Both the position numbers and the translations under genes were made by a program. The notes beneath the pieces were generated by a model. That model saw only the letters and a list, made by a program, of their open reading frames with translations. It did no database searches and was not told where the DNA came from. DNA of 64,000 nt from Patescibacteria group bacterium (GTDB taxonomy: Bacteria > Patescibacteriota > Patescibacteriia > 2-12-FULL-60-25), in assembly GCA_041665165.1 (NCBI GenBank), contig JBAYJJ010000001.1, positions 7,210 to 71,209 on the forward strand, read 5' to 3'. Below are positions 28,124-62,410 of the stretch, piece by piece; within the stretch, counting starts at the first letter, position 1; each line of letters opens with the position of its first letter.

Positions 28124-30358
28124 TTAAATTTCGCTGACCAAAACCTCCAAAGTTGATTTGGCCATGTCCTCAAAACTATTTTGCTTCATGTTTTGCCCTG
28201 ATATAGAGTTCTGGGCTTGCAAAGCCTCAACCCAGGCCCGCTGGTCCAGATAAGGCAAGACCTTTACGCATCCAGGAAACAATTCAGCGGTTTCAGGATT
28301 GCCTCCGCGATCGCTCACCAAGCAAAATAGATTTTTAGAAACCGCCTCGACTACCACATGCGGAAAACCTTCATAGCCAGACGGCAAAACAAACACATCC
28401 GCGGCTGTGTACCATTTTGCCATTTGGTCCCTGGAGACACGGCCTAAAAACTTGACCCGATTGGAAACGTTTTTCGTTTCTGCAGAGTGTTTCAGATCTT
28501 CCAGCAAGGGGCCGTCGCCAGCCACGATAAGTATATAGTCGCTCGGCAAATCAGCGATGCATGAAACCAAAAAATCAACGTTCTTCCAAGGCACTGCCCT
28601 GACAGCAGTCAAGATCGCTTTTTTGCCGACAAGGCCGAACTCTTGCCTTATCTGCTCGCGGTCTGCGGTCAAAGCCAAAGGCGCAATGCTGTTGTAAATG
28701 ACTTTGATCTTGTCTGGCTTTACTCCCCACTTTTCCACGATTGTCTTCAAGTATTTGCTCGGCACAATCACAGCATCAGACCTTTTTGCCACAAATCTCT
28801 CAATCCCTTCCAAAATCCTGATGCTTCCTGAATGTTTGTGCGCGACAAACTCATCCAACAATTCTAATTTACGTCCTGCGTCGCTCGTCCCACGTCCTGC
28901 GTCAGTTTGATACTTTTCCCAAGCTTGGTCGCCGACGACTTTGATGACAAAACGGACGTTGCGGAGACGCGCGGCAAAATACGCCGGAAGACCGTCTGAG
29001 GCCGCACCCATGGCATATACTACATCCGCGCCTTTGACCTGTTTATAGACTTCCTTGAAAAACCGCCAAAACCTTAGTGCGGATTTGCGCCCAATCCTGA
29101 TGACTGGAAACTCTGTGTTGGTTTTTTCCGGCCTGTCTCCATATGCAACTACAAATGGAGCGTGCCCTATTTTCACAAGCTCTGTTGAAAAGCCTTTGAC
29201 ATATCCAGCTGGCCCGCCAATATCCGGCGGATAAATGCTGGAGGCAAACACAATCCTTTTTTGCGCAGCAAGCTTATCCCAAAGCGTATGGTATTTTGAG
29301 ATACAGGCTGCCCAATCGAAGTTCTCGGCGAATAACTGACCCTCTTTGCCCATTTGTTCTGCGAGTTGTTGGTCGTTGAGCAAAGTGATTAATTTCTCGG
29401 CCGCGGCCTGGTAATCATCGCGTTCGACGAGATAACCAGTCTTGCCATCAATCAATGCTTCTGGGATTCCGCCGACCCTTGTTGCTACTGTCGGCAAACC
29501 CGCAGCCGCGGCCTCAAGCAAAACAATACCTTGACCTTCGCCGCGCGACAAAAGCGAGAAGACAGAGCCTGTACGCAACACGCGCATTGCACCTTCATGA
29601 TCTTTTTTGCCGGTGAATGTCACTTTCTCAGAACAGCCCTGATCTTTTGCAAGCTGCTCAAGTGATGATTGCTCATCACCGTATCCGACCAAGTAGAGCT
29701 CTGCTTGCGGAACTTGTTTCAAGACCAGTGCAAAAGCTTTTATCAGACAGTCCACGCCTTTTTCTTTGGAGTAGCGCGCAATGCACACGATGCGATTTGG
29801 AGTTTTTTGTTCAGGAAGATTCTTGACCAAGTTCAAATCAACGCCATTGGGGATGACCTCGACATTACCGCCACCCCTGATCTTAAGTGCGCGATTTGCC
29901 AAAAATTGGCTGATGGCCGTGACTTCATCTGGCACGGTGTGGATTTTTTCCCAAAGCCAACTCATGGGCCATTTTCTCAATTTAGGATCTTCATCCAAAT
30001 TGCCGCTTTGCAAAGTCAGGACTGCACGGATTTTCGGTCTCAGCCATTTGATCAAAATCAAACCCATGGCCGCATGGCTTTCCATGACTGCATGCACGAT
30101 TTGCGGCTTGAGCTTCAAAACCGGGATTACGCACAAAAACGGATATAGAAACTTATCGAAAAGATGCCCTACCCCAACCCGGATAATAAGCACCCCATTG
30201 TCATTTTCGCGCCTGGCCAGGCTCCTGTCCCTAAGGCCGGCTATGACCACAATCTGCCTGTCGCCATGCCTGTCTGCCAGCTCCTGGACGCATAATTCAG
30301 CCCCGCTGATGAAGGGCTTATAGAACGTGGTTAAGATGACAATCGGACTTTTTTGCAT
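28124..30358 (-). CDS. Two-module GT4 glycosyltransferase
   Basis: 744 aa. Module 1 carries ...LLSRGEGQGIVLLEAAAAGLPTVATRVGGIPE and module 2 carries ...LPSGYEGFPHVVVEAVSKNLFCLVSDRGGNPE (two EX7E-type motifs). The modules are joined by a linker that carries a heptamer array. Confidence 0.75.
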   Translation of the reverse strand: MQKSPIVILTTFYKPFISGAELCVQELADRHGDRQIVVIAGLRDRSLARRENDNGVLIIRVGVGHLFDKFLYPFLCVIPVLKLKPQIVHAVMESHAAMGLILIKWLRPKIRAVLTLQSGNLDEDPKLRKWPMSWLWEKIHTVPDEVTAISQFLANRALKIRGGGNVEVIPNGVDLNLVKNLPEQKTPNRIVCIARYSKEKGVDCLIKAFALVLKQVPQAELYLVGYGDEQSSLEQLAKDQGCSEKVTFTGKKDHEGAMRVLRTGSVFSLLSRGEGQGIVLLEAAAAGLPTVATRVGGIPEALIDGKTGYLVERDDYQAAAEKLITLLNDQQLAEQMGKEGQLFAENFDWAACISKYHTLWDKLAAQKRIVFASSIYPPDIGGPAGYVKGFSTELVKIGHAPFVVAYGDRPEKTNTEFPVIRIGRKSALRFWRFFKEVYKQVKGADVVYAMGAASDGLPAYFAARLRNVRFVIKVVGDQAWEKYQTDAGRGTSDAGRKLELLDEFVAHKHSGSIRILEGIERFVAKRSDAVIVPSKYLKTIVEKWGVKPDKIKVIYNSIAPLALTADREQIRQEFGLVGKKAILTAVRAVPWKNVDFLVSCIADLPSDYILIVAGDGPLLEDLKHSAETKNVSNRVKFLGRVSRDQMAKWYTAADVFVLPSGYEGFPHVVVEAVSKNLFCLVSDRGGNPETAELFPGCVKVLPYLDQRAWVEALQAQNSISGQNMKQNSFEDMAKSTLEVLVSEI
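28869..28903. repeat. Degenerate heptamer tandem array inside a CDS linker
   Basis: Plus-strand units are TTACGTC CTGCGTC GCTCGTC CCACGTC CTGCGTC. On the coding strand these read GACGCAG GACGTGG GACGAGC GACGCAG GACGTAA and encode TDAGRGTSDAGRK between the two GT modules. Confidence 0.7.
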
Positions 30359-32045: not shown

Positions 32046-32073
32046 AACAAAAAAGCCGCGAGAAGTTGCGGCT
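32046..32073 (-). terminator. Rho-independent terminator overlapping the stop codon
   Basis: Stem AGCCGCG/TGCGGCT (32054-32060 / 32067-32073). On the minus strand it is followed by TTTTTGTT. The stop codon of the 32072 gene lies inside the stem. Confidence 0.6.
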
Positions 32074-32773
32074 ACGATTCCAGCAGATGCGCCATATATT
32101 GGCGCATCTTTTCGAGATCAGCGAGGTGACCCTTGTCCGTGTAAGTCAGGCGCCGATCGACTTCGGCCTCAGCGGTCTTGACCAACCCGTCGATCCCCGA
32201 GGCGTATCCGGACTGTTTGTGGAGCTCGGAGGCGGCCTTGATCTGCGATCCGATGCCCGTGTCCACCAGCAACGGATAAATCCGCGGAAGCGGCAGACGC
32301 GCCTCGTCGAAGAGCTCAATGCAAGCCTGGATGAACGTGAGATATGAGCGCGGCGTATGCCACGAACCGCCGGTCTGCAGAACTATGCCAGTGGGCGGCT
32401 CGGCGACCAACCTCTTGGCCGCATTCATGGACTGCATGCGTGCGTGGTTTCCGACTTCGTCGGCTTCGATGCGGAAAAAGGGTGGATGAGCGACACCGCC
32501 AACAGCGGCCCACAACTTGTTAATGAGCTCTTTGTTGTACAATTCGCCCTTTTCCCTCTCCTCGGGATTGGTGCCAGTACAGATGAAGCGCTTGGCTTGA
32601 ACACGTTCTGCACACTTAAGCGCCTGGGATACTCGATTGCGCTCAAACACACCAGGCATGACCACCAAAATTTCCGCCCGGCGAATCGTGTTCGCATGAG
32701 TCATAAGGCACATAAGCAAACCGTCGATGATGGCGAGATCTTTCAAGGCCTTGAATTCGGCTTCTGTAGACAT
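32072..32773 (-). CDS. Hypothetical protein, weakly DUF218-like; G+C-rich single gene
   Basis: The start at ATG 32773 is preceded by GAAGGAGG, 6 nt upstream; the track start at 32818 is less likely. It has its own consensus promoter. ILVVMPG...EADEVGNHARMQSMNAAK...LQTGGSWHTPRSYLTF loosely follows the DUF218 pattern. A hand count on 32161-32220 gives 37/60 G+C. Confidence 0.55.
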   Translation of the reverse strand: MSTEAEFKALKDLAIIDGLLMCLMTHANTIRRAEILVVMPGVFERNRVSQALKCAERVQAKRFICTGTNPEEREKGELYNKELINKLWAAVGGVAHPPFFRIEADEVGNHARMQSMNAAKRLVAEPPTGIVLQTGGSWHTPRSYLTFIQACIELFDEARLPLPRIYPLLVDTGIGSQIKAASELHKQSGYASGIDGLVKTAEAEVDRRLTYTDKGHLADLEKMRQYMAHLLES

Positions 32774-32816
32774 CTTGTACCTCCTTCTGGTTGATGGGTC
32801 GAAACAGCGATTCCGC

Positions 32817-32845
32817 ATTTAAGCACTGTTTTTAAGGTTTGTCAA
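32817..32845 (-). promoter_or_regulatory. Sigma70-type promoter of the 32072-32773 gene
   Basis: On the minus strand: TTGACA (32845-32840), an exact 17-nt spacer, then TTAAAT (32822-32817). Confidence 0.5.
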
Positions 32846-32913: not shown

Positions 32914-34101
32914 ATGGACCAAAAAGGCCTGACAATGATCCTGGTCACGAGCCAGGATTGGGGCGGCGTACAAGCCTATGTTTTGGATTTGGCTCTGGCT
33001 CTAAAGTCACGGGGTTTGCCGGTGATTGTTTGTGCAGGAAGACCCGAGAAGTTAGAAGTTAGAAGTTTGAAGTTAGACGTAGGACGAGAACTGGGCGATA
33101 AATGTCTAGAAGCAGGAATTGAGTTTATCGAGTTAAAAAGAATGATCCGTGACATTAACCCGATCTCAAATACGCGCGCTTTATTTGAATTGATCTCTTT
33201 GTTTAAAAAACATCAGCCGCATACAGTCCACTTGAACTCCAGCATGATGGGCGCAGTCGGATCTTTGGCAGCAAGAATCGCTGGTATTCAGCGCGTTGTA
33301 TATTGCATTGGCGGCTGGGCATTCAATGAGCAGATCTCCAGCTGGAAAAAAAGTCTTTACATAACAATCGAAAAAATCTCAGCGCGCTGGAAAGATGTGA
33401 TCATCTGCGTACACCCTGGCGATGAAAAACTGGCGTTGGACATAAAAATCAAACCGCGCGAAAAAGTCATGACCATCCCAAATGGCATTGACGTCAACTT
33501 ATTCCAATCTCAACTTCGTGATCGCGAAACCGCGCATTCGTTGTTAGCTGAACGATGTACGATGTACGATGTACGATGTACGGTTGTTGGCACGGTCGCC
33601 AATTCTTATCCACCGAAAAATCTTTTTTGGTATCTTGAAGTGTGCAAAACAATCACAGACAAGCACCCTGATTTCAAATTCGTGATTATCGGAGATGGCC
33701 CGCAGTTTGAAGAGTTGAAAGCCAAGCATGCGTCTCTGAATCTACAAGACAAGGTGATTCTGACAGGCCGCTTTGAATCAAAACTGCTTTACACGGCTTT
33801 TGATATTTCTGTCTTGCCTTCAACCAAAGAAGGCATGCCACTTGCAGTCTTAGAATCCATGGCTGCCAAAGTCCCCTGCGTCGTGACTGACGTCGGCGGG
33901 TGCAGATGGATGCTGCAGGACGAACAAGGCAGCGCTGGACTCGTGATCCCGCCAAACGACGACAAAGCCCTTGAGCAAGCTATCGAAAAACTTGCGTCAA
34001 ATTCCCTATTACGCCAAGAATTAAGCCAGCGCGCCTACAACCTAGTCACTGAGAAATTTAACTTGCAGGACACTCTGAACAAAACAATTGAAACACTGTG
34101 A
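32914..34101 (+). CDS. GT4 glycosyltransferase carrying two in-frame heptamer arrays
   Basis: 395 aa. MILVTSQDWGGVQAYV (an alternative start at 32935 is possible), then ...LPSTKEGMPLAVLESMAAKVPCVVTDVGG (EX7E). Two low-complexity inserts, KLEVRSLKLDVGRE and ERCTMYDVRCTVVG, are encoded by period-7 DNA. Confidence 0.8.
   Translation: MDQKGLTMILVTSQDWGGVQAYVLDLALALKSRGLPVIVCAGRPEKLEVRSLKLDVGRELGDKCLEAGIEFIELKRMIRDINPISNTRALFELISLFKKHQPHTVHLNSSMMGAVGSLAARIAGIQRVVYCIGGWAFNEQISSWKKSLYITIEKISARWKDVIICVHPGDEKLALDIKIKPREKVMTIPNGIDVNLFQSQLRDRETAHSLLAERCTMYDVRCTVVGTVANSYPPKNLFWYLEVCKTITDKHPDFKFVIIGDGPQFEELKAKHASLNLQDKVILTGRFESKLLYTAFDISVLPSTKEGMPLAVLESMAAKVPCVVTDVGGCRWMLQDEQGSAGLVIPPNDDKALEQAIEKLASNSLLRQELSQRAYNLVTEKFNLQDTLNKTIETL
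33048..33089. repeat. Heptamer array, 6 units (42 nt, in frame)
   Basis: GAAGTTA GAAGTTA GAAGTTT GAAGTTA GACGTAG GACGAGA. Confidence 0.8.
33552..33586. repeat. Heptamer array: (ACGATGT)x4 perfect plus one degenerate unit
   Basis: ACGATGT ACGATGT ACGATGT ACGATGT ACGGTTG, inside the GT4 coding frame. Confidence 0.85.
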
Positions 34102-34123
34102 TTTGCACTAGTTTCGAATCTTG

Positions 34124-34151
34124 AGTTACAAGTTACGAGCTACGAGTATTA
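34124..34151. repeat. Heptamer array in a spacer, reaching the stop codon of the convergent gene
   Basis: AGTTACA AGTTACG AGCTACG AGTATTA. The last unit contains the TAA (34149-34151, minus strand) of the Wzy_C-TPR gene. Confidence 0.7.
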
Positions 34152-36643: not shown

Positions 36644-39600
36644 TTAGTTGCTCAATGAAGCGCTCGATGAGAGGTCTTCGACGTTGACGTCGTTGGACCA
36701 GTCGCGAGAGATGGTCGAAGGAATGCTACCCACTAATACTGCCGTTGAGGCATGTGGGACTTCCGAGTTGTCTGACCAGACAAACGTACCGAGCTTGAGG
36801 CTTGCACCTGGTGCACCGCCAGCAGCAGATTGATCTAAGTTGAAGATCGATGTGCTGGAGACAGCGAAGATGCCCGTGCTCTTGGTTGACAAGTAGCCAG
36901 TGACCACCGGGGCCGTTGGGTCGCGGTAGAATGAAGTGGTTACGTTGTTACCAGTGCCAGTGTAGGCCACAGTGGCGCGGAGCGAATAGATATTGCCCGA
37001 GCCGCTGATTGAATCCTCACCAGTGAAAGCAACGATAGCCTTAAAGCTGTTGACGCCAGCTTGGGTCTCCTGCTGCGCTGCCTTGATATCCGTGGCCGAA
37101 GTTGAGTTCACGATTGTGTACTCACCGGTCGGGACCAAGGTTGAGCCGCGATACAACCTGAATGAGCTCAAGCCCACGTTGGCTGACTTGGAGATGTTGA
37201 ACACCATCTGTTTCAAGGCAATGGAACCGGCTGAATCAGCGCCCACCTGAGCGCGATAGAGTTCGAGTTCACCGGCCGAGAGAACAGTGTTGGTCAAGTT
37301 CTGCTTGGTGACAACAGGCTTTGTCTTGCGGATGACCTGGGTGTTGCCAGCTGCTGCGCCTGAAGCTGCGTACACGCGCTCACCAGACGAAACGCCTGTG
37401 GTGCGGATGTTGAGCTTGGAAGCATAGTTGGTATCCCATTCACCAGTCTGCAAGTTGTCGCGGATGCCGATGCCAGGAGCATGGCCAGAGCGAGCCACAT
37501 TGGTGGTTGCGCCGTTGACCGAAGATGATGGCGAGACATTGGAAAGCTTGGCCCACAATTCAAAGTTGGTCGAGCTATCCTTAAGAACCGTGAACTCATT
37601 GCCTGTTAAATCAATGTCCACGCTGCCAATTGCGCCAGACGATAATACGTTGGAGCTCTTGATTGCGCCGCCTGTAGCTATGCCGATGGCTACGAAGTCT
37701 GCGTTATCGCCGCCGGTGGTCGAGCTGACCGTGATGCGATCGATCTGCATGTCTTCGTACTGAGCTGTAGCCTTATAGCGAGCAAACGGTACCCAGACGT
37801 CCTTACCAGCCACGACGATTGAAGTGGAAGGATGAGCGTCAGCAGACACCGTAATGTTACCCTTGGACAAGATTGTGGTGTAGACAGAAGGAGCGGCGCC
37901 CAACTGAGTGGTCTTCAAAGCGGTTGAAACGCTTGCAGTCACTGTGTTGGCGTCGTCGTCCTGAGCTGTGATATCACCGTTTGCAGCAATACCGACTTCA
38001 ACCTTGTCAAACGGTGCCGTTGTAGCTGCCGTTGAGGTGAAGGTGGCTTTGACTGTCAAATCCTTGGTCGTGCCCTTGAGAACCTTCAAATTCATGTTTG
38101 TGATTTGTGCGGTTCCAAGAGTCGTGTCCGGAGCCTTGGCAATACCGACTTGCGTGGCGCCATCCCACAGGGAGAGCGAAGCAACGCGGCTTACGCAAGA
38201 ACCAACGGCATAAGCCACACCAGCCAAGCTAGCCTTACAAGTCAAGGTCAGGTTAGTGATCGTGACATCAGACTGAGCACCGGCTGAGAGGGAAATGCCG
38301 ACTACTGACTTATTGATGGACTTTTTAACCACAGTGGCTGACACCGGGTTAGAGGCCAAATCAGCAGTCAAACTGGATGACTTGATGGTTTGCACGTTAC
38401 CAGCTGTTGAAGCATTCGGGACGATCTTGGTGATATCCAGGCTTTCACCAGTGGATACGACCTTGACATCGCCAGCGATGAACGGGCTGAAAGTAGCCTT
38501 GTACTTGTGCGTGCCATTCAAGTAGAACTCGTTGATTACATCTTCAGTGTTAGAGAGGTCAGCGGCCAGAGCCAAATTTAAGGTCGTGCCAGCCTTCAGG
38601 GTGAAGGTGTCATTGAAGACCAAAGCCTCGCTGGTTGAAGAAGCTGCCGAGGTCAATTCCTTGGGACCCATTATTGTTGCGCCCGTATCAAGATTATAAA
38701 TCTTGATGTTGCGGAAGTACTTTGTGCTGGCTGAGCCTACGATCAAGTCGTTGGCTGAGTTGCCGGCCAAAGTAAAGCGCAGATAGCGGATTTCCAAATC
38801 ATTGTCAGCAGATGTGAGTGCGAACTTGTAGAACGGAACTGACAATTTGCCCTTGGCTACGTTAGCCGACGGAGGACCGTTGAAAGCAAATGACAAGTTG
38901 CCGCCCTGAGTTGTGACTGATACGCCCTCAGCTGAAGTATCGAACGCAGAAATCGTGATGCTTGCACCTGAGTTATAGACAGTGTCTGTGGCGTTGATAT
39001 CAGCAGCGTACTCAATGTAGGTAACGATTGTGCGACCAGAGCGGCCAGCCACATCGCCACGGAGTGAGAATACGCGCGTCACACCATTCGGGATGAGATA
39101 CGCAGTGTCGAAAGTGAGCACGATCTGGCCCTTGGCATTGATCGAAGCGGCAGAAGCCACCTTGGTCGAACCCTGGTACAGTTCAAAGTTGCTCAAATCC
39201 GAGTTGTCCACCGTGCCGCCCTGATACAGAGCCACGCGGTTGACGCGGATATCATTGGTGTTGGCTGTGAGTTTGAAGCTTGAGATCTCAACATTCTTGG
39301 AACCGATGACCGGGTTGGCCGGGGTCGGGCCTGGTTGAATGGTGAGTGTGCCGGCCGATGAAGCACCGATGACAAACACATTGCCGCGGACCGGGAAAGA
39401 ACCCGAGACCGTGCCTGTGCCTGTGAGCACTACACTGGCTGCATCAACCAATTCGAAAGCATGATTGCCTCCGGTTACGGTTGGGCTGTTGAAGTCAGCA
39501 TAAACATAGTATGACTTCATGCCTCCAGCCGGAATCGTGACGTTCAACGAGTTGAACTCAGTGACATTGGTGGTGGCATTTACCGAGCGGCCCGTGGTTA

Positions 39601-40519
39601 AACGGTTGCCGTCCTGGTCATACAAGTAGACGTTGGCGAAATCTGAAGTTGAACCGACACCTACGCGATGGAAGCGCATGCCGGAGACCAAAGCGTCAGC
39701 ACTGCCGGCAGTCAAGTTGACCTTGACCATCGGGACGCCCATGGCGTTCTTCGGAACTGTTGCGCCAGACGGGGTATCAGAGGCCAAGGCCACTGTTACG
39801 CTGCCGTTGACTGAAGTTGAACCGCTGCCGCATGAAACGGACCAGAAGTTATCAGCTTCCAAGCCAGTCACGTCTGCACCGTCAGGATACGAGATCGTGG
39901 TGGTGATGACATTGATGGCATTGAACTTGTTGTCTGTTAAAGCAGTACCAGCAAGCTTGCGCTTCTGTCCATTCATTACTACGTAGCGATTTGCATCGCC
40001 GGCATAGGTAACGAGCGAACCATCCGGGTGGACGTTCGATGAGACTGAAGCACCAGTCGTGTAGTTGACGAAGAATGAATCAGGCACGTCGATGACGCGC
40101 GTGGCCCAAGCATCTCCATAGAGGGCCTTGGCAATGGCTTCGGATTCGATCCAATGCAAGGTTCCGCACTTGGTGACGGCATAGGTCTTAGGGTCTGTGG
40201 TGATCTTCACGAGCTTGGTGCCCGGGCGGACCGTCACATTGCCCCCAATCATGATGGCAGCGAGTTCTGCATCTGTAATTGTTTTAACAGCTGAGAAATC
40301 GTTATACCAAGAGAAGTACGTCTTTTCATCTGGGAAAACATAGCGTTTTCCATCGGTGGCGTAGAAGTACACTGCTGGACCCGAAGCCTTGATCAAGTCG
40401 CCATTTACTAAAGTGGCTGCCTGAGCTGAGACTGGGAAAGCTAATGCACCGGCTCCGACTGACCAAAGAATGGTCACGAAAGAGACGACCGCGGAAAAGA
40501 CTTTCTTTAATGAATTCAT
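36644..40519 (-). CDS. Giant secreted surface protein (S-layer/adhesin-like, S/T/A/G/V/N-rich)
   Basis: 1291 aa. Has an N-terminal signal peptide MNSLKKVFSAVVSFVTILWSVGAGALAFPVSAQA and no other hydrophobic segments. Beta-rich repetitive modules are of the type (...SGATV...VKVNLTA..., ...FKLTAN..., ...FALTSAD...). It is moderately G+C-rich (33/60 on 37081-37140). Confidence 0.8.
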   Translation of the reverse strand: MNSLKKVFSAVVSFVTILWSVGAGALAFPVSAQAATLVNGDLIKASGPAVYFYATDGKRYVFPDEKTYFSWYNDFSAVKTITDAELAAIMIGGNVTVRPGTKLVKITTDPKTYAVTKCGTLHWIESEAIAKALYGDAWATRVIDVPDSFFVNYTTGASVSSNVHPDGSLVTYAGDANRYVVMNGQKRKLAGTALTDNKFNAINVITTTISYPDGADVTGLEADNFWSVSCGSGSTSVNGSVTVALASDTPSGATVPKNAMGVPMVKVNLTAGSADALVSGMRFHRVGVGSTSDFANVYLYDQDGNRLTTGRSVNATTNVTEFNSLNVTIPAGGMKSYYVYADFNSPTVTGGNHAFELVDAASVVLTGTGTVSGSFPVRGNVFVIGASSAGTLTIQPGPTPANPVIGSKNVEISSFKLTANTNDIRVNRVALYQGGTVDNSDLSNFELYQGSTKVASAASINAKGQIVLTFDTAYLIPNGVTRVFSLRGDVAGRSGRTIVTYIEYAADINATDTVYNSGASITISAFDTSAEGVSVTTQGGNLSFAFNGPPSANVAKGKLSVPFYKFALTSADNDLEIRYLRFTLAGNSANDLIVGSASTKYFRNIKIYNLDTGATIMGPKELTSAASSTSEALVFNDTFTLKAGTTLNLALAADLSNTEDVINEFYLNGTHKYKATFSPFIAGDVKVVSTGESLDITKIVPNASTAGNVQTIKSSSLTADLASNPVSATVVKKSINKSVVGISLSAGAQSDVTITNLTLTCKASLAGVAYAVGSCVSRVASLSLWDGATQVGIAKAPDTTLGTAQITNMNLKVLKGTTKDLTVKATFTSTAATTAPFDKVEVGIAANGDITAQDDDANTVTASVSTALKTTQLGAAPSVYTTILSKGNITVSADAHPSTSIVVAGKDVWVPFARYKATAQYEDMQIDRITVSSTTGGDNADFVAIGIATGGAIKSSNVLSSGAIGSVDIDLTGNEFTVLKDSSTNFELWAKLSNVSPSSSVNGATTNVARSGHAPGIGIRDNLQTGEWDTNYASKLNIRTTGVSSGERVYAASGAAAGNTQVIRKTKPVVTKQNLTNTVLSAGELELYRAQVGADSAGSIALKQMVFNISKSANVGLSSFRLYRGSTLVPTGEYTIVNSTSATDIKAAQQETQAGVNSFKAIVAFTGEDSISGSGNIYSLRATVAYTGTGNNVTTSFYRDPTAPVVTGYLSTKSTGIFAVSSTSIFNLDQSAAGGAPGASLKLGTFVWSDNSEVPHASTAVLVGSIPSTISRDWSNDVNVEDLSSSASLSN

Positions 40520-42530: not shown

Positions 42531-42607
42531 TAAACGCTGAACGCACAACGCTAAACCCTAAACGCGTCGAAGCCTAAGGGTTAAGGGTTAAGCTTTAAGG
42601 GTTAAGC
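42531..42607. repeat. Heptamer array, 11 units in two sub-arrays, immediately upstream of the sigma gene
   Basis: TAAACGC TGAACGC ACAACGC TAAACCC TAAACGC GTCGAAG CCTAAGG GTTAAGG GTTAAGC TTTAAGG GTTAAGC. Confidence 0.8.
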
Positions 42608-42722: not shown

Positions 42723-42995
42723 ATGGAAAACTCGCCTATCCGTTTAAGTATTTCCCAGGCCGCACGCCTTTTTGGCATATCTGATCGCACTCTGCGCCGA
42801 GCAATCAGCTCTAACCAAATTAGATATGTAGTCGTGAAAAATCGATATCAACTTAACTTCGAATCCGTGCTGTCTTGGTCACAATCCAAACCCAAAGTTT
42901 TAAATAAACTTGAAAAGCAAGGCATAGGCCAATGGGTGGAGAAGTGGAAGATCAAAAATCCAAAATTCTCTCCTCGTCCGCCCCAAACCAACTGA
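42723..42995 (+). CDS. Small excisionase/MerR-type HTH DNA-binding protein
   Basis: 90 aa. LSISQAARLFGISDRTLRRAISSNQIRY is a helix-turn-helix, and the C-terminal tail is basic. Confidence 0.6.
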   Translation: MENSPIRLSISQAARLFGISDRTLRRAISSNQIRYVVVKNRYQLNFESVLSWSQSKPKVLNKLEKQGIGQWVEKWKIKNPKFSPRPPQTN

Positions 42996-46043: not shown

Positions 46044-46155
46044 CAATTAAAAATTCAAAATTGATAATTCAAAATTCAGGAGGCCTTTGGCTTTTATCTG
46101 GTAATCCGCGAAGCGGCACATGAACTTTGAATTTTGCATTTTTAATTTTGAATTA
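46044..46155. repeat. Inverted pair of AT-rich heptamer arrays flanking a 42-nt core
   Basis: The left array (46044-46078) is CAATTAA AAATTCA AAATTGA TAATTCA AAATTCA. The right array (46121-46155) is TGAACTT TGAATTT TGCATTT TTAATTT TGAATTA. TGAATTT is the exact reverse complement of AAATTCA. The right array covers the stop codon and last codons of the 46142 gene. Confidence 0.75.
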
Positions 46156-47647: not shown

Positions 47648-47774
47648 AAACTACTTAAAAAAATGACACAGCTTTCCAAAGCTCCCCTCTTGACAAAGGA
47701 GCCAAATTACTGGTAAGAAGCTCTCACTAGAGATGAAGGAGCGATCCTTCGACAACTCAAACAGGAGGTTGGTG

Positions 47775-49694
47775 ATGCGACGTCAGAATGCGATTCGGTA
47801 CATGTTGTTGGGAGGGATCGTTCTTGCGGGATCGATCGACACCGGGTGCCAAGGGAGCTACGACCACAAGGAGCAGTACAGCCAGGTGCAACAGGCCTTG
47901 TCCTGCGCACCGGGTGTTTTCACCCACGGATGTACCTACGAGCAGCAGAACGAGACTTGCTATTTCGACGGCAAGCCCCTCGTCTGCGCGAACTGCATCT
48001 GGTGGGACCAAGCAGCTCTGACCAAGAGCGGTGGGCACATCCCCGATAATTCCAAATGCCAGCCCAGCGAAGCTGGTGCCGGTGGAACGTCCACGGGCGG
48101 GACTGGTGGAAACCAGGACGCCTCGGCTGGCTCTGGAGGTACGTCTGTCGGAGGAACGGGCGGAACCTCAACCGGAGGCACGGGTGGTACCGACCAGGAT
48201 GCGGCAGCTGGAAGCGCAGGAACCGGTGGAACCGTTTGCTCCTGCACACCAGGAACCAAGTTCGGTCCGTGCGAAGGTGATGGCTGGCAGTACTGTCTTG
48301 CGGACTGCATCAACCTGACCGCTTGTCTCCACACTGGAGCAGGAGGCTCGGGCGGCAGCTCGACCGGCGGCGCAGCAGGCAGCGGCGCTGGCGGGACCAC
48401 GACTGGCGGCAACGCGGGCGCAGCAACCGGAGGCACGGCTGGTGTCGGCGGAACTTCCACAGGTGGATCGTCCGGAACCGGAGGCACAGCAACCGGCGGA
48501 AGCGCAGGTGCAGCTGGTGCTTTGACTGGCGGATCTGGCGGCACGGCTGGCACGGGCGGAACCTCTACCGGAGGAACTGCAGGCCAGGCTGGTGTGGCTG
48601 GAAGTGCGGGGTCCTCGACCGGAGGCACGAACGCTGGCGGCGCTGGCGGGACCACGACTGGCGGCAGTGCAGGCGCAGCAGGTGCTTTGACCGGTGGATC
48701 TGGCGGCACGAGCGCAGGCGGAAGCGCAGGCGCAGCTGGCACGGGCGGAACGTCAGGAGATTGCAAGGGTGGCCAGGAATGCGCCACGTATTCCTTCCCC
48801 CCGGACTACAGCTGCAAGGAAACACTGCCTCAAGAGCCAGGATCAGACGCCGGACTGGAAGTCGTGACGTTCGGCTGCGTCTGTGGCTGGGTTATGTCGA
48901 TCGACGCCATCCCGTACATGGTCTGCCAAGATGGCGGAGCAGGAGGCTCGGGCGGCACCGGAGGCACTTCGTCGACCGGCGGAAGCGCTGGCGCAGCTGG
49001 TGCTTTGACCGGCGGCGCAGGCGGAACGACAGCCGGTGGTTCAGGTGGCACGAGCACGGGTGGCACGGCAGGCAATGCCGGTTCATCCACTGGTGGCACG
49101 TCGGCCGGAGGTGCAGGCGGATCTGGCGGTGTTCTGCCGGACGCAGGTTCCTCGCTCAAGAATCCCGAATTCCTGACCGACCCATGCGTGGACGCGGATC
49201 GCGCGATCTCGCCGACCACGCTCCCCGCAATCGGACTCTGGCTCCAATACCAGGCGCCGATCAAGCTACCGGACACGCTGCTCGGCGAGTACGACTGGAC
49301 CAACTACACTACGCCAGGGTACACGGATACCAAGTGGCAGATTCGAACAGCCACTTCCTCGACCGCGGCCACGAGCATCTTCGCCCTGCTCATCAACACC
49401 CCGGGCCTGTCCTATGACCGCTGGTTCATGGTCAAGCAGATCGACCCTCTGTCCACGCAGGATTGCCTGTTCTACAACAGCGACGGGTACTACTGCAACT
49501 ACTCACCGGATGCCACGCAGACCGGAACCCTGTTCTGCTCTGGCACCTGGACCCTGTGGCTGGACAATGTCCAGGTCACGACCTACACGGATGCGGCAGG
49601 TGTGACACCCGCTCTGCCCTTCGTCAAAACCTTCACGTTCAAGGATGGAAATTGGGCGCCCAAGATCGGCGTCCGTCTCCCCCTCGCTACGTGA
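47775..49694 (+). CDS. Secreted Gly/Thr/Ser/Ala-repeat protein with Cys-rich modules (possible lipoprotein)
   Basis: The ATG at 47775 is preceded by AGGAGG with a 6-nt spacing; the track start at 47733 lacks a ribosome-binding site. It has the signal-like MRRQNAIRYMLLGGIVLAGSIDTGC, then four GGTSTGG/GGSAGAAGALTGG tracts separating Cys-containing modules. It is very G+C-rich. Confidence 0.7.
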   Translation: MRRQNAIRYMLLGGIVLAGSIDTGCQGSYDHKEQYSQVQQALSCAPGVFTHGCTYEQQNETCYFDGKPLVCANCIWWDQAALTKSGGHIPDNSKCQPSEAGAGGTSTGGTGGNQDASAGSGGTSVGGTGGTSTGGTGGTDQDAAAGSAGTGGTVCSCTPGTKFGPCEGDGWQYCLADCINLTACLHTGAGGSGGSSTGGAAGSGAGGTTTGGNAGAATGGTAGVGGTSTGGSSGTGGTATGGSAGAAGALTGGSGGTAGTGGTSTGGTAGQAGVAGSAGSSTGGTNAGGAGGTTTGGSAGAAGALTGGSGGTSAGGSAGAAGTGGTSGDCKGGQECATYSFPPDYSCKETLPQEPGSDAGLEVVTFGCVCGWVMSIDAIPYMVCQDGGAGGSGGTGGTSSTGGSAGAAGALTGGAGGTTAGGSGGTSTGGTAGNAGSSTGGTSAGGAGGSGGVLPDAGSSLKNPEFLTDPCVDADRAISPTTLPAIGLWLQYQAPIKLPDTLLGEYDWTNYTTPGYTDTKWQIRTATSSTAATSIFALLINTPGLSYDRWFMVKQIDPLSTQDCLFYNSDGYYCNYSPDATQTGTLFCSGTWTLWLDNVQVTTYTDAAGVTPALPFVKTFTFKDGNWAPKIGVRLPLAT

Positions 49695-49724
49695 TTCTCG
49701 ACGCGTTCCTAGAACGTGTCTCTC

Positions 49725-49751: not shown

Positions 49752-49765
49752 ATTCGCTTCGCTCG

Positions 49766-50550: not shown

Positions 50551-52422
50551 TCACCAGTCAGTCACACCGTTGCAGTTCGCATCCGGGCCGCCGACCAAGT
50601 CAGTCGCACCAGGGTGCGTGTCACCGCTCAGGTCATTACAATCGTGAGGAAGAACGAAACCGTCCGTGTCCCAGTCCGTGGCGCCAGAAGCCTGGACCAT
50701 GACCCTGAGATTGCATCCATTGTGCTGGTTGTTCCATACGCCCTGCACTTCGGGAGTGGCATACTTGTTGCCGTTCTTCTCGATGTAGCAGGCGAATTCG
50801 AACTGCAGTTGGGAAGGATTGTCCCACTGACAGCCAGCATACTGCCAGATGTTATTGCTCGGCGGGTCGCGGTAGGTGCTGAACAAGAACTCGTCGTTCT
50901 CCTTGGGGTTCTGCACCGTGAACGTGCCCCACACAGCATTGTATGTTGGCACGGTCTGCGAGCCAGCGCCCCACAGCACGGCATAGTAGTCGTGCTTGGC
51001 AACGTCCGGCAGAAACACGCGGTAGAAGCACACGAGCTTGGTTGCGCTCGGCGTGCCGCAGCCTTCGTCGATCTGCCCGTCGCAATCGTTGTCCTTGCCA
51101 TCGCAGAGCTCAGTCGCGGCTGGCTGATTTCCGTTGGGGCCAAAGATGTTTGCATCGTTGTCGTTGCAATCACCCTGGGCCACGGTCCTGCCGTCGCCAT
51201 CCTTGTCCTGCGAAACGCTGCAGCCTTCGTCCGTCTGGCCGTTGCAGTTGTCGTCGACTCCGTTGCACTGTTCGGCCGCGCCGGGATTGACATCCGACTT
51301 GGTGTCGTCGCAGTCGCCAATCTTGAGGACGTAGCCCTGAGGCTGAAGGTTGGTATACTGCCAGATCGAGCTGACACCATACCCGTCTCCGTCAACATCC
51401 CTGTACCACATCTGTGGCGGAACGCCGCAGCCTTCGTCAACCAACCCGTTGCAGTCATTGTCTTTGCCATCGCAGGACTCGTACGAAACCCCGGGGTTCA
51501 TCGCCGGGTCGTTGTCGTTGCAGTCGCCCTGGGCCACGGTGAAACCGTCACCATCCTTGTCCTGCGAGACACTGCAGCCTTCGTCAATCTGGTTGTTGCA
51601 GTTGTCGTCGACTCCGTTGCAGAGCTCGACGGCCTTGGGATGGACGCTGGCGTTGTTATCGTCGCAATCGTCGTTGCCAGTAATCCAGTTTACGTAGCCC
51701 GGGAGCCACGCGTCGCAGGGGCTGACGAACAAGTAATCGTTCGGGTCCCCGTAGCCATCGCCGTCCTTGTCGTGCAAACGCCGTTCCTTGGTGTTGCAGG
51801 AGTTCCATCCGCCTGTGCCGCCAGTTCCGGATGATCCGCCTTGCGCGGTTCCACCGGTTCCGGACGATCCACCCGTGGGAGTTCCGCCAACACCAGCTGA
51901 ACCTCCTTGCGAGGTCCCTGCTGTGCCGCCAGTCGAGCTTCCGCCCGTGGAAGTTCCGCCGACGCCACTCGATCCTCCTTGTGAGGATCCTCCAGTTGAC
52001 GAGCCTCCAGTCGAGCTTCCGCCCTGACTCGAACCGCCGGCGCCGCCGGCAGACGTGCCGCCGGTTCCACTGGACCCGCCTGTGGAGGGCTGGCCTGACC
52101 CACCCGCACCGGATGTTCCGGCATCGGGCTGGGTGCAATCGCAAGCGCCGTACGTGTTCTGCGCGTTGCAGACCTGAACGCCCTTGAGGCCTCCAGCGCA
52201 ATCACAGACGATCTGCTGTCCCTGCACGCACTTTGCAGGTGTTCCAGCTGATCCGCCTTGTGCGGTTCCGCCGACACCGGACGAGCCTCCGATTGAGGTG
52301 CCGGCGCTTCCTGCACTGCCTGCAGCAGCCGGAAACTCGGCTTCGTCGCCACTGGTGTCGATGCCGCATCCGACTGCAAGAACCGAAAGCACAACCACGG
52401 ACAATGCCTTGATATTTCTCAT
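50551..52422 (-). CDS. Lipoprotein with a Gly/Ser/Thr linker and five MopE-like putative metal-binding motif repeats
   Basis: 623 aa. Has the lipobox MRNIKALSVVVLSVLAVGC and a GGSSGTGGT linker. Repeats follow the pattern D(K/V)DGDG..........DC(D/N)D......PG..E.C(N/D)G.D(D/N)(N/D)C(N/D)G..DEGC, for example DCDDNNASVHPKAVELCNGVDDNCNNQIDEGC. Confidence 0.75.
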   Translation of the reverse strand: MRNIKALSVVVLSVLAVGCGIDTSGDEAEFPAAAGSAGSAGTSIGGSSGVGGTAQGGSAGTPAKCVQGQQIVCDCAGGLKGVQVCNAQNTYGACDCTQPDAGTSGAGGSGQPSTGGSSGTGGTSAGGAGGSSQGGSSTGGSSTGGSSQGGSSGVGGTSTGGSSTGGTAGTSQGGSAGVGGTPTGGSSGTGGTAQGGSSGTGGTGGWNSCNTKERRLHDKDGDGYGDPNDYLFVSPCDAWLPGYVNWITGNDDCDDNNASVHPKAVELCNGVDDNCNNQIDEGCSVSQDKDGDGFTVAQGDCNDNDPAMNPGVSYESCDGKDNDCNGLVDEGCGVPPQMWYRDVDGDGYGVSSIWQYTNLQPQGYVLKIGDCDDTKSDVNPGAAEQCNGVDDNCNGQTDEGCSVSQDKDGDGRTVAQGDCNDNDANIFGPNGNQPAATELCDGKDNDCDGQIDEGCGTPSATKLVCFYRVFLPDVAKHDYYAVLWGAGSQTVPTYNAVWGTFTVQNPKENDEFLFSTYRDPPSNNIWQYAGCQWDNPSQLQFEFACYIEKNGNKYATPEVQGVWNNQHNGCNLRVMVQASGATDWDTDGFVLPHDCNDLSGDTHPGATDLVGGPDANCNGVTDW

Positions 52423-58317: not shown

Positions 58318-60420
58318 CTAGTACTGCACTTCAAACATTCTGTCTTCCAGCGTATCAATTCTATATTCGTAGGCGTTATCTCCCCACTTGGCTTCTGCTT
58401 CGGCTGGGTCTGCTTTTTTGACTGTTGTCGGTAAAATTATTTTGACATCAATCTGAGTGTTGTCTGCGCCCGGTTGCTTGGGCCAATCAAGACGATAGTC
58501 GCCGCTCGTAACGTCCAGCGGCGGAAGTTGATAGGTAAAAGATAATTGACCGCTTTTGCCTGGTTCTATGGCCCAAAAAGCACCGTAGACTGTTTTGCCC
58601 AGCTCTTTCATGACATCTACTTTGCCTGCGACGAAGTTGCCGCCCGTGTTATGCAAATCATCGGCCATGGCGCCTTTGGCTGAAACAAAGGTGCTGCCAT
58701 CAGGTACATAAATGCGTGTGTAACTGCGATAGCGCGTATATCTCCAAGTGGATTGCTTGTTTGTATTCTTATAATTGAATGTGACGGTCGCTACTGGCTT
58801 TTGCGGATCGCGCGCATCCAAAACATATGAGACTGACTTTTGCATTACGCCATCAGTCTTAAGCGCCGCGAGATTCGCATCCACCACCCACAAGAAATCA
58901 CCAAGCGTTGGCTTAGCGCGCCCGCTCCAGCCATATTGATCCAGTTTTTTCTCAACATCCGCATTGCGCGAGTAGATGAGAATCTGCTTGCGGTTCAATG
59001 ACGTGGTCACAAGATCCAATAGCTCTGGCCAGCGCGACTTGGGCATATTTTGGATTTTGGCCATTATGGCCTGACCCACTTCGCCCATAAGCACCTTCCT
59101 ATCTTCGACTGAAATGCCTTGCTTGCCAAAACCGATTTCTACCTGATACTGCAAAGTATCAAAAAAGTTCTGGTCATTATATTCCTGGCCGCGGACATTT
59201 ACCGGCCCGGTTATCTTGAGTAGGGCTTCAAAAAACGCCGGCTCAAAAGCAACATAAACCGTTGGCTCAGAAATCTTGTTTCCAGCCAAGATGTTTTCTC
59301 TGGTATAAAAATCCAATACTTTATCGGCTGAAGTCGGGAAATCCGGCGACCAATTCGCATCGCGCATAAACCAAACTTTTGCCTTGAGATAATCCTGCAA
59401 AGGTTTCGGCGGAATTTCTTTCCAAGTTTGCGCTACTGGATTATCAACTTGATACACATCTGAAAAAACCATGTTCGTCATGTCCCCGCCTGTAACCTTG
59501 GCCGTGAACAAACTTCCGATAAAACCGCCCGAAGGGCGAATCTCGTCCGCATTCTGCAAAGCCACAAGATAATCTTGAGCATCTGGATAGCCAGCCAAAG
59601 GCACCATGACGTCGATCAAAGGAACGGCCTGGGTCAATGATTTTTGCATCACTGGCAAAGCATCAGCCAGTGGTTTCAAAGCTTGCTTGATGGGACCGGC
59701 GATCTGATTTTGCGGCAAAGCATTCCACAACCTGTAGGCCAAATCCATTTTGTCCCTGGCAAGCCTGATGTCTGGCAATGAATTGTATAAAACCCGAAGC
59801 AAGCTTAGTTTATTTTCCGGAGTCAGATCTTTCAGCCTGTCGCTGGGCGAAATCGGCACGCCGAGGCTATTGACTGCCTGCTGGCCAGTTGAAGCTGCAT
59901 CAAAAATCGCTGAAGCGACCTTAAGCAAATCCTCCATGCCTTCCATTGAATCCGCACTCACGACCGAGGCATCCTGCAGAATGCGCAACTGCGACCCTAT
60001 ATATGGGACATCTCTCCAAAAGCCCATGCCATTCAAAGCGACCTCCATGTTATTGAGTTCAAGTTTTGCCTTGGCCGAATACGCTTGGGCAGTGGCCATG
60101 TCCCCGGCCAGCAAAGCTGTCTGCATGTTAGAAAGCGCGACTCGGGCATTGTTGGCTGCCAAGCCAGCTTTAGCCAAAGCTATTCCCGGAGGCACGGTTG
60201 CAATCCCCAGCGCTATCACTAAAAACGCGACCACTATCCAAAAAAGCTTACGCTTCTTCCGCGGATTCGTAGCTCGTAGCTCGTAGCTCGTAGCTCGGTC
60301 TTTGTTTGTCGGCTGTGGTCTGTCGTCTGTGGTCTTAGTGTCGCGAAAAGCGTCCGCTTTGTGTGGCGGTTCGAGCTCGGGCACTCCCGGGCAAGTTAAA
60401 AAATTTGGATGCTCTTTCAT
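58318..60420 (-). CDS. DUF4012-type membrane-anchored protein
   Basis: The ATG at 60420 overlaps the upstream TAA by 1 nt (TAATG); the track start at 60540 overlaps 120 nt. It has one TM segment (LFWIVVAFLVIALGIATV) and then ...AKAGLAANNARVALSNMQTALLAGDMATAQAY..., typical of DUF4012. The N-terminal tail is encoded by a heptamer array. Confidence 0.7.
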   Translation of the reverse strand: MKEHPNFLTCPGVPELEPPHKADAFRDTKTTDDRPQPTNKDRATSYELRATNPRKKRKLFWIVVAFLVIALGIATVPPGIALAKAGLAANNARVALSNMQTALLAGDMATAQAYSAKAKLELNNMEVALNGMGFWRDVPYIGSQLRILQDASVVSADSMEGMEDLLKVASAIFDAASTGQQAVNSLGVPISPSDRLKDLTPENKLSLLRVLYNSLPDIRLARDKMDLAYRLWNALPQNQIAGPIKQALKPLADALPVMQKSLTQAVPLIDVMVPLAGYPDAQDYLVALQNADEIRPSGGFIGSLFTAKVTGGDMTNMVFSDVYQVDNPVAQTWKEIPPKPLQDYLKAKVWFMRDANWSPDFPTSADKVLDFYTRENILAGNKISEPTVYVAFEPAFFEALLKITGPVNVRGQEYNDQNFFDTLQYQVEIGFGKQGISVEDRKVLMGEVGQAIMAKIQNMPKSRWPELLDLVTTSLNRKQILIYSRNADVEKKLDQYGWSGRAKPTLGDFLWVVDANLAALKTDGVMQKSVSYVLDARDPQKPVATVTFNYKNTNKQSTWRYTRYRSYTRIYVPDGSTFVSAKGAMADDLHNTGGNFVAGKVDVMKELGKTVYGAFWAIEPGKSGQLSFTYQLPPLDVTSGDYRLDWPKQPGADNTQIDVKIILPTTVKKADPAEAEAKWGDNAYEYRIDTLEDRMFEVQY
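60267..60336. repeat. Heptamer array, 10 units, inside the DUF4012 coding sequence
   Basis: TCGTAGC x4 (perfect), then TCGGTCT TTGTTTG TCGGCTG TGGTCTG TCGTCTG TGGTCTT. On the coding strand the first block is (AGCTACG)n, the same unit as at 34138. It encodes ...TTDDRPQPTNKDRATSYELRATN.... Confidence 0.85.
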
Positions 60421-61298
60421 TAATCGATCGGACGAACGTGGGAATGCGGGTTTTTGGTCCCGCGGTACTTCCAGAAATAGTATACCGCACTTAAGATGTG
60501 TGCGCGCGCCGGCTTGTGGGTAATAAGGTGCCACGGCCAATCAATGGCACTTTCTCTTTGATGGTAATGAACAAGTTTGGCAGATGGCACATGCACCACT
60601 CTCCAGTTATAAACCCATGCCCTGCGGCAGATATCCAGCTCTTCCATGTACATGAAAAACTTTTCATCGAACACGCCAACTTCTTCCAAAGCTTTGCGCC
60701 TGATCATGATAGCCGAACCCATCATGGCATCCACTTCCAAAGGCTTTTGCTCGGACAAGACATCGCGCATGAAATAATGATGCAGATATCTTTTACCGGC
60801 CGATGTCTTACCCAAGATGGTGCGGCGGTAAAACGGCATCATGACTGTCGGGAATCTGTAGCAGGATTCTTGGCGCGTGCTATCCGGGTTATACAAAGCT
60901 GGGCCTGCCATTCCCACATCCGGGTGCGCATCCATAAACTCAACCAACTTCTCCATCTCGCCCGGAAAAATAGTGAGATCCGGATTGACTAGCATCACAT
61001 ACTCTCCCCTAGCTTGCCTTAAGGCCAGATTATTGCCCGCGCCAAAACCAACATTCCTGACAGAATCAATGACCTTGACCCACGAAAATCTTTCTTTGAC
61101 CATCTTGCCTGTGCCATCACCAACTGCGTTGTCCACCAAAAAATATTCAAAAGAAAAATCAAACTTAGCAGCCTCGGCGCCTTTGAGCAGCATACGGATA
61201 AGGCCCGGAGTGCGGAAGCAAACCGTAACAAAAGAAACTTTAGGATCAGGACCCCGCAACGGCTGTTGCGGGACTGAATTTTGGTTTATTTCGTTCAT
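60420..61298 (-). CDS. GT2 glycosyltransferase
   Basis: The track start at 61307 is a TTG; the ATG at 61298 forms an ATGA overlap with the upstream stop. Motifs are VSFVTVCFRT...YFLVDNAVGDGT...NVGFGAGNN...VMLVNPD (DxD). Confidence 0.8.
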   Translation of the reverse strand: MNEINQNSVPQQPLRGPDPKVSFVTVCFRTPGLIRMLLKGAEAAKFDFSFEYFLVDNAVGDGTGKMVKERFSWVKVIDSVRNVGFGAGNNLALRQARGEYVMLVNPDLTIFPGEMEKLVEFMDAHPDVGMAGPALYNPDSTRQESCYRFPTVMMPFYRRTILGKTSAGKRYLHHYFMRDVLSEQKPLEVDAMMGSAIMIRRKALEEVGVFDEKFFMYMEELDICRRAWVYNWRVVHVPSAKLVHYHQRESAIDWPWHLITHKPARAHILSAVYYFWKYRGTKNPHSHVRPID

Positions 61299-62356: not shown

Positions 62357-62410
62357 GTATCATATAACATATATCATCCGTCATGTTACATGTTGCGTGT
62401 TACATGTTTC
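62348..62410. repeat. Heptamer array, 9 units, spanning a gene junction
   Basis: ATGTAAC ATGTATC ATATAAC ATATATC ATCCGTC ATGTTAC ATGTTGC GTGTTAC ATGTTTC. It covers the start codon of the 61295-62356 gene, the 29-nt spacer, and the stop and last codons of the 62386-63903 gene. Confidence 0.8.

Follow-up and report, generated by a model that had tools for sequence, protein, structure and literature searches.

Heptanucleotide arrays in two loops of a Patescibacteria GT4 glycosyltransferase probably belong to a dispersed, length-unstable class of repeats

The two heptanucleotide arrays that are translated within a GT4 glycosyltransferase gene of a Patescibacteria group bacterium are probably members of a lineage-wide, length-unstable class of dispersed repeats similar to the STRR sequences of cyanobacteria, which are kept only where a protein loop tolerates them and the reading frame is preserved. 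The gene lies in a stretch of 64,000 nt (assembly GCA_041665165.1, contig JBAYJJ010000001.1, positions 7,210 to 71,209 of the forward strand), here called the window, and an original prediction made from its sequence had proposed that the arrays form a slipped-strand phase-variation switch. According to our analysis, such arrays may arise and change by replication slippage or by recombination between units, with local sequence as a frequent starting point, and the data show that an array persists in a gene only if its unit is free of stop codons, the loop is permissive and the overall gain or loss of length is divisible by 3. Both sites in the GT4 gene would then be permissive loops that have been hit repeatedly in different lineages, and the likely outcome is a loop-length polymorphism of the enzyme without sign of regulated on/off expression.

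The gene that carries both arrays (Table 1) is a GT4 glycosyltransferase gene whose product has a GT-B fold with two Rossmann-like domains, a GT4 N-terminal and a Glycos_transf_1 C-terminal profile and an E-x7-E motif. The 395-aa open reading frame (ORF) matches Pfam PF00534, PF13439 and PF13579 (Glycos_transf_1 7e-34, Glyco_transf_4 5e-18), the two glutamates of the motif (E306-x7-E314) are invariant in the orthologue alignment, and the closest solved structures in the PDB are WbnH, BshA-like and PglA-like enzymes. An identical protein is already on public record, where NCBI names it as a GT4 from a Patescibacteria metagenome-assembled genome (MAG). The ORF list shows no interruption across array 1 or array 2 and, together with the Pfam matches, bears out the earlier description of one GT4 gene whose frame stays open through both arrays. 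The AlphaFold2 (AF2) model, for which 22 orthologues were used as input, is an alternation of strands and helices with a mean pLDDT (predicted local distance difference test) of 90 and a pTM (predicted template modelling score) of 0.89. Envelope-glycan genes characterise the entire window, which encodes NeuB, sugar aminotransferases and an ABC exporter and contains numerous GT4 and GT2 genes as well as two Wzy-like genes.

Tandem Repeats Finder (TRF) reports array 1 at 33047-33077 (period 7, 4.4 copies, 91% matches) and array 2 at 33552-33582 (period 7, 4.4 copies, 100% matches), the latter in agreement with the four perfect ACGATGT units described before. Array 1 had been taken as a single array of 6 x 7 = 42 nt and turned out to be a composite of two repeat families, array 1a and array 1b. 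Its 14 codons, KLEVRSLKLDVGRE, do occupy 33049-33090, one position away from the start first given, and encode the peptide K46-E59. Both TRF and a lag-7 scan found at least three head-to-tail copies of a 7-nt unit in array 1a and in array 2. The only mismatch of array 1a is a T at 33068: a perfect AAGTTAG run would read ...AGA AGT TAG, and this T turns the one in-frame TAG into TTG. Duplicating perfect array 1a units leads to a stop and a 51-aa product, and array 1a is tolerated only because of a point change that removes the in-frame TAG. Neither array shows a fold signal (z of -0.04 and -0.09) and most units are not G-rich, and for these reasons a hairpin in single-stranded DNA or a G-quadruplex was rejected as the force that drives the GT4 arrays.

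These arrays, which had been presented as features of one GT4 gene, are rather part of a larger set, since the window holds at least 12 heptamer arrays. A lag-k self-match scan found nine period-7 arrays, compared with 0.05 expected from Markov-1 simulations, and values near 0 for other periods except the multiples 14 and 21. We also sampled 80 related loci with GT4 orthologues (1.24 Mb), mostly from Uhrbacteria-like Patescibacteria MAGs; they are all centred on one glycan gene, and thus a bias towards a class of genes falls outside what the counts show. They contain 103 period-7 arrays and at most nine for any other period from 4 to 12. Period 7 is accordingly over-represented both in the 64 kb of the window and in these glycan-locus neighbourhoods, although the density is patchy (0 to 7 arrays per 10 kb, depending on the genome). 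Repeats of this type are present within as well as between genes in some Uhrbacteria-like Patescibacteria genomes.

In most cases the unit is peculiar to one array, and arrays of different families are often adjacent. Their length has a mode of 31 nt, typically 3.5-4.5 units, a peak that is partly sharpened by the score threshold for imperfect arrays (perfect runs span 24-33 nt). We considered that this mode could come purely from frame selection, as a 10-nt seed plus 21 nt, and rejected the idea, since the mode is present equally in non-coding arrays (arrays of exactly 31 nt: 13 coding and 10 non-coding). A few much longer arrays of 68-111 nt with higher-order structure were also seen (L079 9851-9961, L072 5235-5325 and L015 18791-18858), built from TACATGC/TATGTGC variants or from AATTACC-type units that encode …ITNNQLPITNNQSS… peptides.

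Within the protein, the alignment and the predicted structure place both arrays in surface loops, where they are lineage-specific insertions. In the AF2 model the array 1 peptide forms a coil that links strand 37-42 to helix 58-66, and its residues 48-56 have a pLDDT below 50. The array 2 peptide forms a coil that leads from helix 204-212 into strand 223-228, with which the C-terminal domain begins its series of strands, and the mean pLDDT for residues 211-220 is 65. The locations first suggested, a short loop of the GT4 N-terminal domain and the inter-domain region, were thus both right, and both segments are low-confidence coil in an otherwise confident GT-B model. Site 1 is in most orthologues a turn of 2-4 residues between beta2 and alpha2 (G-K-G before ELG), and its length ranges among orthologues from 2 to 47 aa. 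At site 2, the segment from NG[IVL] to ANxY measures exactly 38 aa in about 40 orthologues compared with 43 aa in the window. The closest relative (L001/P0002, 76% identity) has neither array, and array 1a is also missing from L002, L003 and L004. With respect to array-free orthologues the net insertion is about +12 aa at site 1 (+36 nt) and +5 aa at site 2 (+15 nt), which are not simple multiples of 7 nt.

Both sites are occupied by other sequences in other genomes. Site 2 holds a perfect (TCGAGAT)x4.4 in L002 and L005, and L102 (P0003) carries there ACGTTAC ACGTTAC ACGATAC ACGTTAC ACGTT. Instead of heptamers, L004 (10529-10669) and L007 (10508-10666) have period-16 tandem duplications of 2.6 and 3 copies, respectively, in which the frame is kept by 3 x 16 = 48 nt, and L009, L053, L072 and L079 have unrelated insertions of +12 to +64 aa, some of which resemble translated palindromic repeats; taken over all orthologues, unrelated insertions at site 2 measure +9 to +64 aa. 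Insertions of a palindromic or MITE-like kind are translated in both GT4 loops of orthologues (L010 321-416, L009 10550-10699, L053 10508-10714 and L015 around 10100-10330), with peptides such as KSPLVMGDL…HDKGGMGG (L010), GAIHELPLRG (L009) and PLPLSPTMQGKGV…GRGVGGEGV. Since heptamer, period-16 and palindromic insertions are all found there, these loops accept several kinds of repeat DNA. Furthermore, a second GT4-type gene nearby has a loop, WEQYQQ...ELLDEF, with a different heptamer-derived peptide in almost every genome. With respect to origin, the 3' ends of the site 2 arrays match ancestral local codons: CAT TCG AT in the array-free L008 corresponds to ...GAT TCG ATG in L002, and array 2 of the window ends on the ancestral Thr codon ACG. 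These ends suggest that the arrays grew at least partly from local sequence.

Direct evidence for length instability came from a comparison of close strains. The cluster at 90% identity that contains the window protein has a second member, P0121, a protein of 402 aa that is the same except for seven extra residues at site 1, and two independent sources supplied its DNA, a 53.9-kb contig (L081) of an ENA assembly (ERZ27249449) and a contig (L082) of a JGI metagenome (3300037810). Positions 22914-44101 of the window align with L081 over 21,188 bases with no single-nucleotide polymorphism and one indel. This sole indel consists of 21 nt, GACGTAG GACGTGG GACGAGC, in array 1b, that is, three units and in frame, and the long allele in both L081 and L082 reads GACGTAG GACGTGG GACGAGC GACGTAG GACGAGA. 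The window allele is most simply explained as a deletion between 11-nt direct repeats, GACGTAGGACG, spaced 21 nt apart, because it is the long allele that shows the five units canonical for its family. A collapse during assembly seems unlikely, since an 11-nt repeat is far shorter than typical assembler k-mers (the name of the L081 contig starts with k141) and two assemblies share the long allele.

The arrays at 28869, 34124, 42531/42575 and 42989 are unchanged between the window and L081 within these 21 kb, and the window, L081 and L082 do not differ in array 1a or in array 2. Repeat-number variation among close strains was consequently found for array 1b only, as this in-frame change of 21 nt. 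A search of metagenomes for copy-number variants of array 2, with a flank-N{10,40}-flank pattern, gave no match in a collection that evidently lacks contigs of this strain. With one event in 21 kb, heptamer arrays would rank among the fastest-changing sites of the genome and could be used to tell strains apart.

A change of 7 or 14 nt in either direction would truncate the protein, to 49-57 aa at array 1 and to 236-261 aa at array 2, and a change of 21 nt keeps the frame; the earlier statement that a single unit shifts the frame is therefore correct. Moreover, because 3 x 7 = 21, translation of a heptamer array gives one and the same 7-residue repeat whichever frame is used, and what matters is then that the unit be free of stops. 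Taking as coding any array that lies within a long open frame, rather than within a predicted gene, 75 of the 110 arrays are coding, often several in the same gene. Units free of stops on the sense strand make up 67 of these 75, compared with 75% expected for random genomic 7-mers, and units with stops on both strands are enriched among the non-coding arrays (10 of 35, with 7.5% expected).

This arithmetic is the basis for reading the GT4 gene as a contingency locus of the NeuO type, in which slippage by a single 7-nt unit would switch the enzyme between a full-length ON form and a truncated OFF form and so vary a surface glycan to escape phage or host recognition. The unit is not a multiple of 3, changes of 7 or 14 nt end the protein ahead of or inside the catalytic domain, a large envelope-glycan region surrounds the gene (NeuB, aminotransferases, many GT4/GT2 genes and Wzy-like genes) and array 1 differs in length between near-identical strains. 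There is also a precedent in neuO, the capsule O-acetyltransferase gene of E. coli K1, which has an in-frame AAGACTC repeat of 3-53 units (20 being the commonest), is ON only if the repeat number is divisible by 3, forms subpopulations of +/-1 unit in culture and is OFF in 66% of genomes (PMC13001214). However, the only variant that we have seen is in frame, and none of the approximately 75 intragenic arrays is frame-broken, compared with 66% OFF among sequenced neuO genomes. The tracts have about four units instead of the 3-53 of neuO, array 1a is imperfect and array 2 does not vary among three assemblies. The repeats also occur in unrelated genes, including the N-terminus of a deacetylase and a putative LeuRS-like gene, as well as in intergenic DNA and in antisense orientation. 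For all these reasons the phase-variation switch that was originally proposed is, in our opinion, distinctly improbable, and the arrays give no present support for programmed phase variation of surface glycans in bacteria of the Candidate Phyla Radiation (CPR).

No verified frame-broken gene was found at any of about 110 arrays (about 75 of them intragenic), nor in the three GT4 assemblies, all of them consensus assemblies in which minority alleles are invisible. Five candidate split genes at arrays did not hold up. The array at L007 7778, the best of the five, covers codons 3-12 of a polysaccharide-deacetylase-like gene on the minus strand, the L036 pair shares one frame and consists of two adjacent genes, and neither L044 nor the two L073 cases yield a fused gene when 7 or 14 nt are added or removed. 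The truncated gene call of L015 (P0072) was rejected as an OFF allele because neither of its two frameshifts falls at a heptamer array; the MFD prefix of this record presumably denotes a long-read project, and sequencing error may explain the frameshifts. As a separate observation, the L007 array (7778-7806) is a perfect (GAATTTG)x4 placed directly after the start codon of the deacetylase-like gene, a position typical of classical phase-variable genes.

The second part of array 1 led to a dispersed family. There are 28 (GACGNNN)n arrays in the related loci, including two sites in the window strain, so that one family is found at unlinked sites, most other units being unique. Many of these arrays have a 21-nt super-unit, GACGYRG GACGYGG GACGAGC, which encodes D[VA]GRGTS. 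The window strain carries this module twice, at 28869-28903 and at site 1 (full in L081 and as a two-unit remnant in the window), and it is also present in L013, L072, L079 and L102. A metagenome scan for the module added 19 further contigs in which it lies in unrelated genes, in different frames and in both orientations: DVGRGTSDVGR in sense frame 1, TRDAGRATQDV in sense frame 2 (within a 1040-codon ORF) and RPTSLVPRPTS in antisense. The 1040-codon ORF contains the motif TTRPDTLFGATYL, which suggests that it is leucyl-tRNA-synthetase-like. This distribution over unrelated genes, frames and orientations indicates that the repeats are not tied to glycosyltransferases.

The same family is an argument for considering the arrays as minute mobile or templated elements: instead of arising by slippage on the spot, heptamer modules would spread to new sites through recombination, through gene conversion or with the help of an enzyme, and loops would be preferred or merely tolerated targets. 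The ordered module recurs in unrelated genes in both orientations, the size of about 4.4 units is stereotyped even outside genes, arrays of different families often lie side by side, and Geobacter has a 49-member family of the same architecture. Against this, we found no conserved termini, target sites or flanking duplications, and the flanks of the 28 GACG members share nothing; the GT4 arrays have no inverted termini, no stable fold and no duplication when filled and empty sites are compared, and thus lack the hallmarks of MITE or REP elements. Furthermore, most arrays have unique units, the ends of the site 2 arrays coincide with ancestral local codons, no candidate enzyme was identified and, by our estimate, about six common unit variants make some coincidences among sites expected. 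We therefore regard mobile or templated elements as rather unlikely. The original prediction had offered, as an alternative, selfish insertions tolerated only when their total length is a multiple of 3; this is close to the data as far as the length rule goes, but the arrays look partly built from local sequence, no mobile-element termini were seen and array 1a needed in addition a change that removes a TAG.

A bolder version, to which we would likewise give only a small chance, is that some Patescibacteria actively write arrays of about four heptamers genome-wide, including GACGYRG-GACGYGG-GACGAGC, by a templated or recombinational process. If so, active writing would be a frame-independent generator of loop insertions and of 7-residue length polymorphism, concentrated in envelope-glycan enzymes, and would represent a way of diversifying proteins that is new for CPR bacteria, besides offering a hint about the origin of STRR-type repeats.

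Some of the peptides are shared in a way that could point to function. A GACG-family array lies directly before ELG at site 1 in the long allele (DVGRGTSDVGR|ELG), in L102 (GRGTCDAGR|ELG) and, as judged by the peptide, in P0019, so that the window strain, L102 and P0019 have ...GRGT[SC]D[VA]GR in common there despite a protein identity of about 55%. In addition, the L002 and L005 arrays are perfectly conserved (32/32 identical) in genes that are 80.9% identical (P about 0.001), which at the sequence level indicates either ongoing homogenisation or constraint, and in NeuO the length of the repeat region raises catalytic activity (PMC13001214). The heptad peptides could thus be flexible linkers or spacers selected to tune the activity or the interactions of the enzyme. 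However, the closest relative and most orthologues do without both inserts, unrelated peptides occupy the same loops, which are modelled as disordered, and the same DNA is read elsewhere in other frames and in antisense. We consider selection for the peptides themselves to be very improbable.

Several points weigh against the reading of the arrays as dispersed repeats filtered by loop and frame. The estimate of instability rests on a single polymorphic event, array 2 being invariant in three assemblies, and minority out-of-frame alleles are invisible in data at the assembly level. The preference for about four units exists outside genes too and has no explanation from slippage, and slippage alone also fails to explain an ordered 21-nt module at many unrelated sites. 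Finally, neither of the net insertions (+36 and +15 nt) is a simple multiple of 21 nt, and extra indels must be assumed.

The repeats that we describe resemble several known systems. An excess of heptameric simple sequence repeats has been described in many bacteria, with intergenic enrichment in Xanthomonas and Nostoc and with inverted pairs, and a slippage hypothesis has been proposed in which the 7 nt reflect the DNA segment held by the polymerase (PMC4692102). Heptamer repeats have also been reported near Nostoc genes and in Beggiatoa (bioRxiv 10.1101/2022.06.06.494920). The cyanobacterial STRR (short tandemly repeated repetitive) sequences of Calothrix, Nostoc and Anabaena and the repeats GGGNATC / GGGGAYT, known from Xanthomonas and Nostoc, share with the present arrays the short 7-nt units in tandem, the strong period-7 excess, the dispersed unit families, the presence of some inverted stem-loop pairs and the variation in length and sequence between close relatives. 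They are mainly intergenic, whereas here roughly two in three arrays are translated in frame within genes, the host is a CPR bacterium and most units are not G-rich. The 75 of 110 arrays in long open frames fit better with Geobacter metallireducens, the closest architectural match, in which families of four (GGACCGG) or five (MTYCTGA) tandem heptanucleotides lie within and between genes and were interpreted as putative regulatory RNA or protein-binding sites (PMC2700814). Geobacter belongs to a different phylum and has different units, and that paper reports no strain-level length polymorphism or loop mapping (PMC2700814).

The likeness to neuO lies in an in-frame heptanucleotide repeat within a surface-glycan enzyme gene, translated as a heptad peptide, in which only frame-keeping counts give a full-length protein. 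The neuO units are, however, perfect, located at the 5' end and subject to measurable +/-1 switching, whereas here about four units lie in internal loops, have changed by three units only and are not specific to one gene. MITE- or REP-like insertions translated in genes occupy the same GT4 loops in orthologues, but the window arrays are direct tandem repeats with a fold z of about 0. Among the collection of papers that we searched, none links heptamer repeats to CPR bacteria or Patescibacteria. The kind of repeat is thus already known, and what is new is its mapping to loops, the pattern of recurrent sites, the 21-nt polymorphism between strains and the D[VA]GRGTS module.

These results extend to the CPR the heptanucleotide families known from cyanobacteria, Xanthomonas, Beggiatoa and Geobacter. 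Orthologous sites that are filled, empty or differently filled could help to work out the origin of such repeats, and peptides with a 7-residue periodicity in Patescibacteria proteins should be annotated and modelled as repeat-derived loop inserts rather than as conserved motifs.

Table 1. Position of the GT4 gene, its arrays and the other heptamer arrays located in the window
Feature	Position	Strand	Basis and remarks
GT4 (GT-B fold) glycosyltransferase gene, host of arrays 1 and 2	32914..34101	+	395 aa; ORF list, Pfam, AF2 model
Array 1a, (AAGTTAG)x4 with one mismatch	33047..33075	+	Part of K46-L54; TRF, lag-7 scan
Leu52 codon TTG	33067..33069	+	Sole mismatch of array 1a, T at 33068; sequence reading
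Array 1b, GACGTAG GACGAGA, two-unit remnant of a GACGNNN-family array	33076..33089	+	Site of the 21-nt polymorphism
Array 2, perfect (ACGATGT)x4.4	33552..33582	+	Encodes E213-T223 (ERCTMYDVRCT), inter-domain linker
GACG-family array GACGCAG GACGTGG GACGAGC GACGCAG GACGTAA	28869..28903	-	In frame in double-GT4 gene 28124..30358; TRF 28872-28903
Intergenic array AGTTACA AGTTACG AGCTACG AG	34124..34146	.	Just after the GT4 stop; TRF 34123-34147, lag-7 scan
Intergenic pair of roughly complementary arrays, TAAACGC/TAAACCC and TAAGGGT	42531..42606	.	Adjoins sigma-70 gene start; TRF
Intergenic heptamer array	42989-43019	.	TRF / lag-7 scan
Intergenic inverted pair of AATTCAA / TGAATTT arrays	46045..46154	.	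TRF; hairpin z -2.8
Two adjacent in-frame arrays in DUF4012 gene 58318..60540	60267..60335	-	TRF, translation, Pfam DUF4012
Adjacent inverted arrays CATGTAA / CATGTTA	62342..62413	.	Between two minus-strand genes; TRF

Among the other arrays of the window, the one at 28869-28903 occupies the loop WEKYQT[DAGRGTSDAGRK]LELLDEF of the double-GT4 gene, and the orthologues hold other heptamer peptides in the same loop. The array at 34124-34146 separates the convergent GT4 and Wzy-like genes and has no notable fold. In the DUF4012 gene, a perfect 31-nt (CGAGCTA)x4.4 at 60267-60297 is accompanied by an imperfect array at 60307-60335, and both lie in the N-terminal tail just before a predicted membrane helix (…KDRATSYELRATNPRKKRKLFWIVVAF…).

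Three sites consist of inverted pairs (42531-42606, 46045-46154 and 62342-62413), long hairpins whose arms are themselves of period 7, and similar pairs are present in L009 and L073. As single-stranded DNA, the first one folds with -13.1 kcal/mol (z -1.6), and it is identical in L081; the hairpin at 62342-62413 has -12.1 kcal/mol (z -3.8) and none of 200 shuffles was as stable. Judging from the predicted folds, these inverted heptamer pairs could be terminators, regulatory structures or products of template switching. No known RNA families or tRNAs were found in the window.

The GT4/Wzy pair is flanked by a 1291-aa ORF (36644..40519, minus strand) and a 248-aa ORF (32072..32818, minus strand) that have no Pfam match and whose synteny is kept in L081 and L102. 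Further along, the GC content is 0.55-0.62 at 48001-52000 compared with about 0.48 for the window, over a region that covers a 653-aa ORF (47733..49694, no Pfam match) and most of a gene with MopE-like metal-binding motifs (50551..52422, minus strand), and this high-GC stretch may be foreign DNA. A 25-nt tandem repeat of 2.5 copies, TCGAGATGACAAAAGGAGGAAACAG, lies at 50337-50398, a short way downstream of the MopE-like gene's 3' end.

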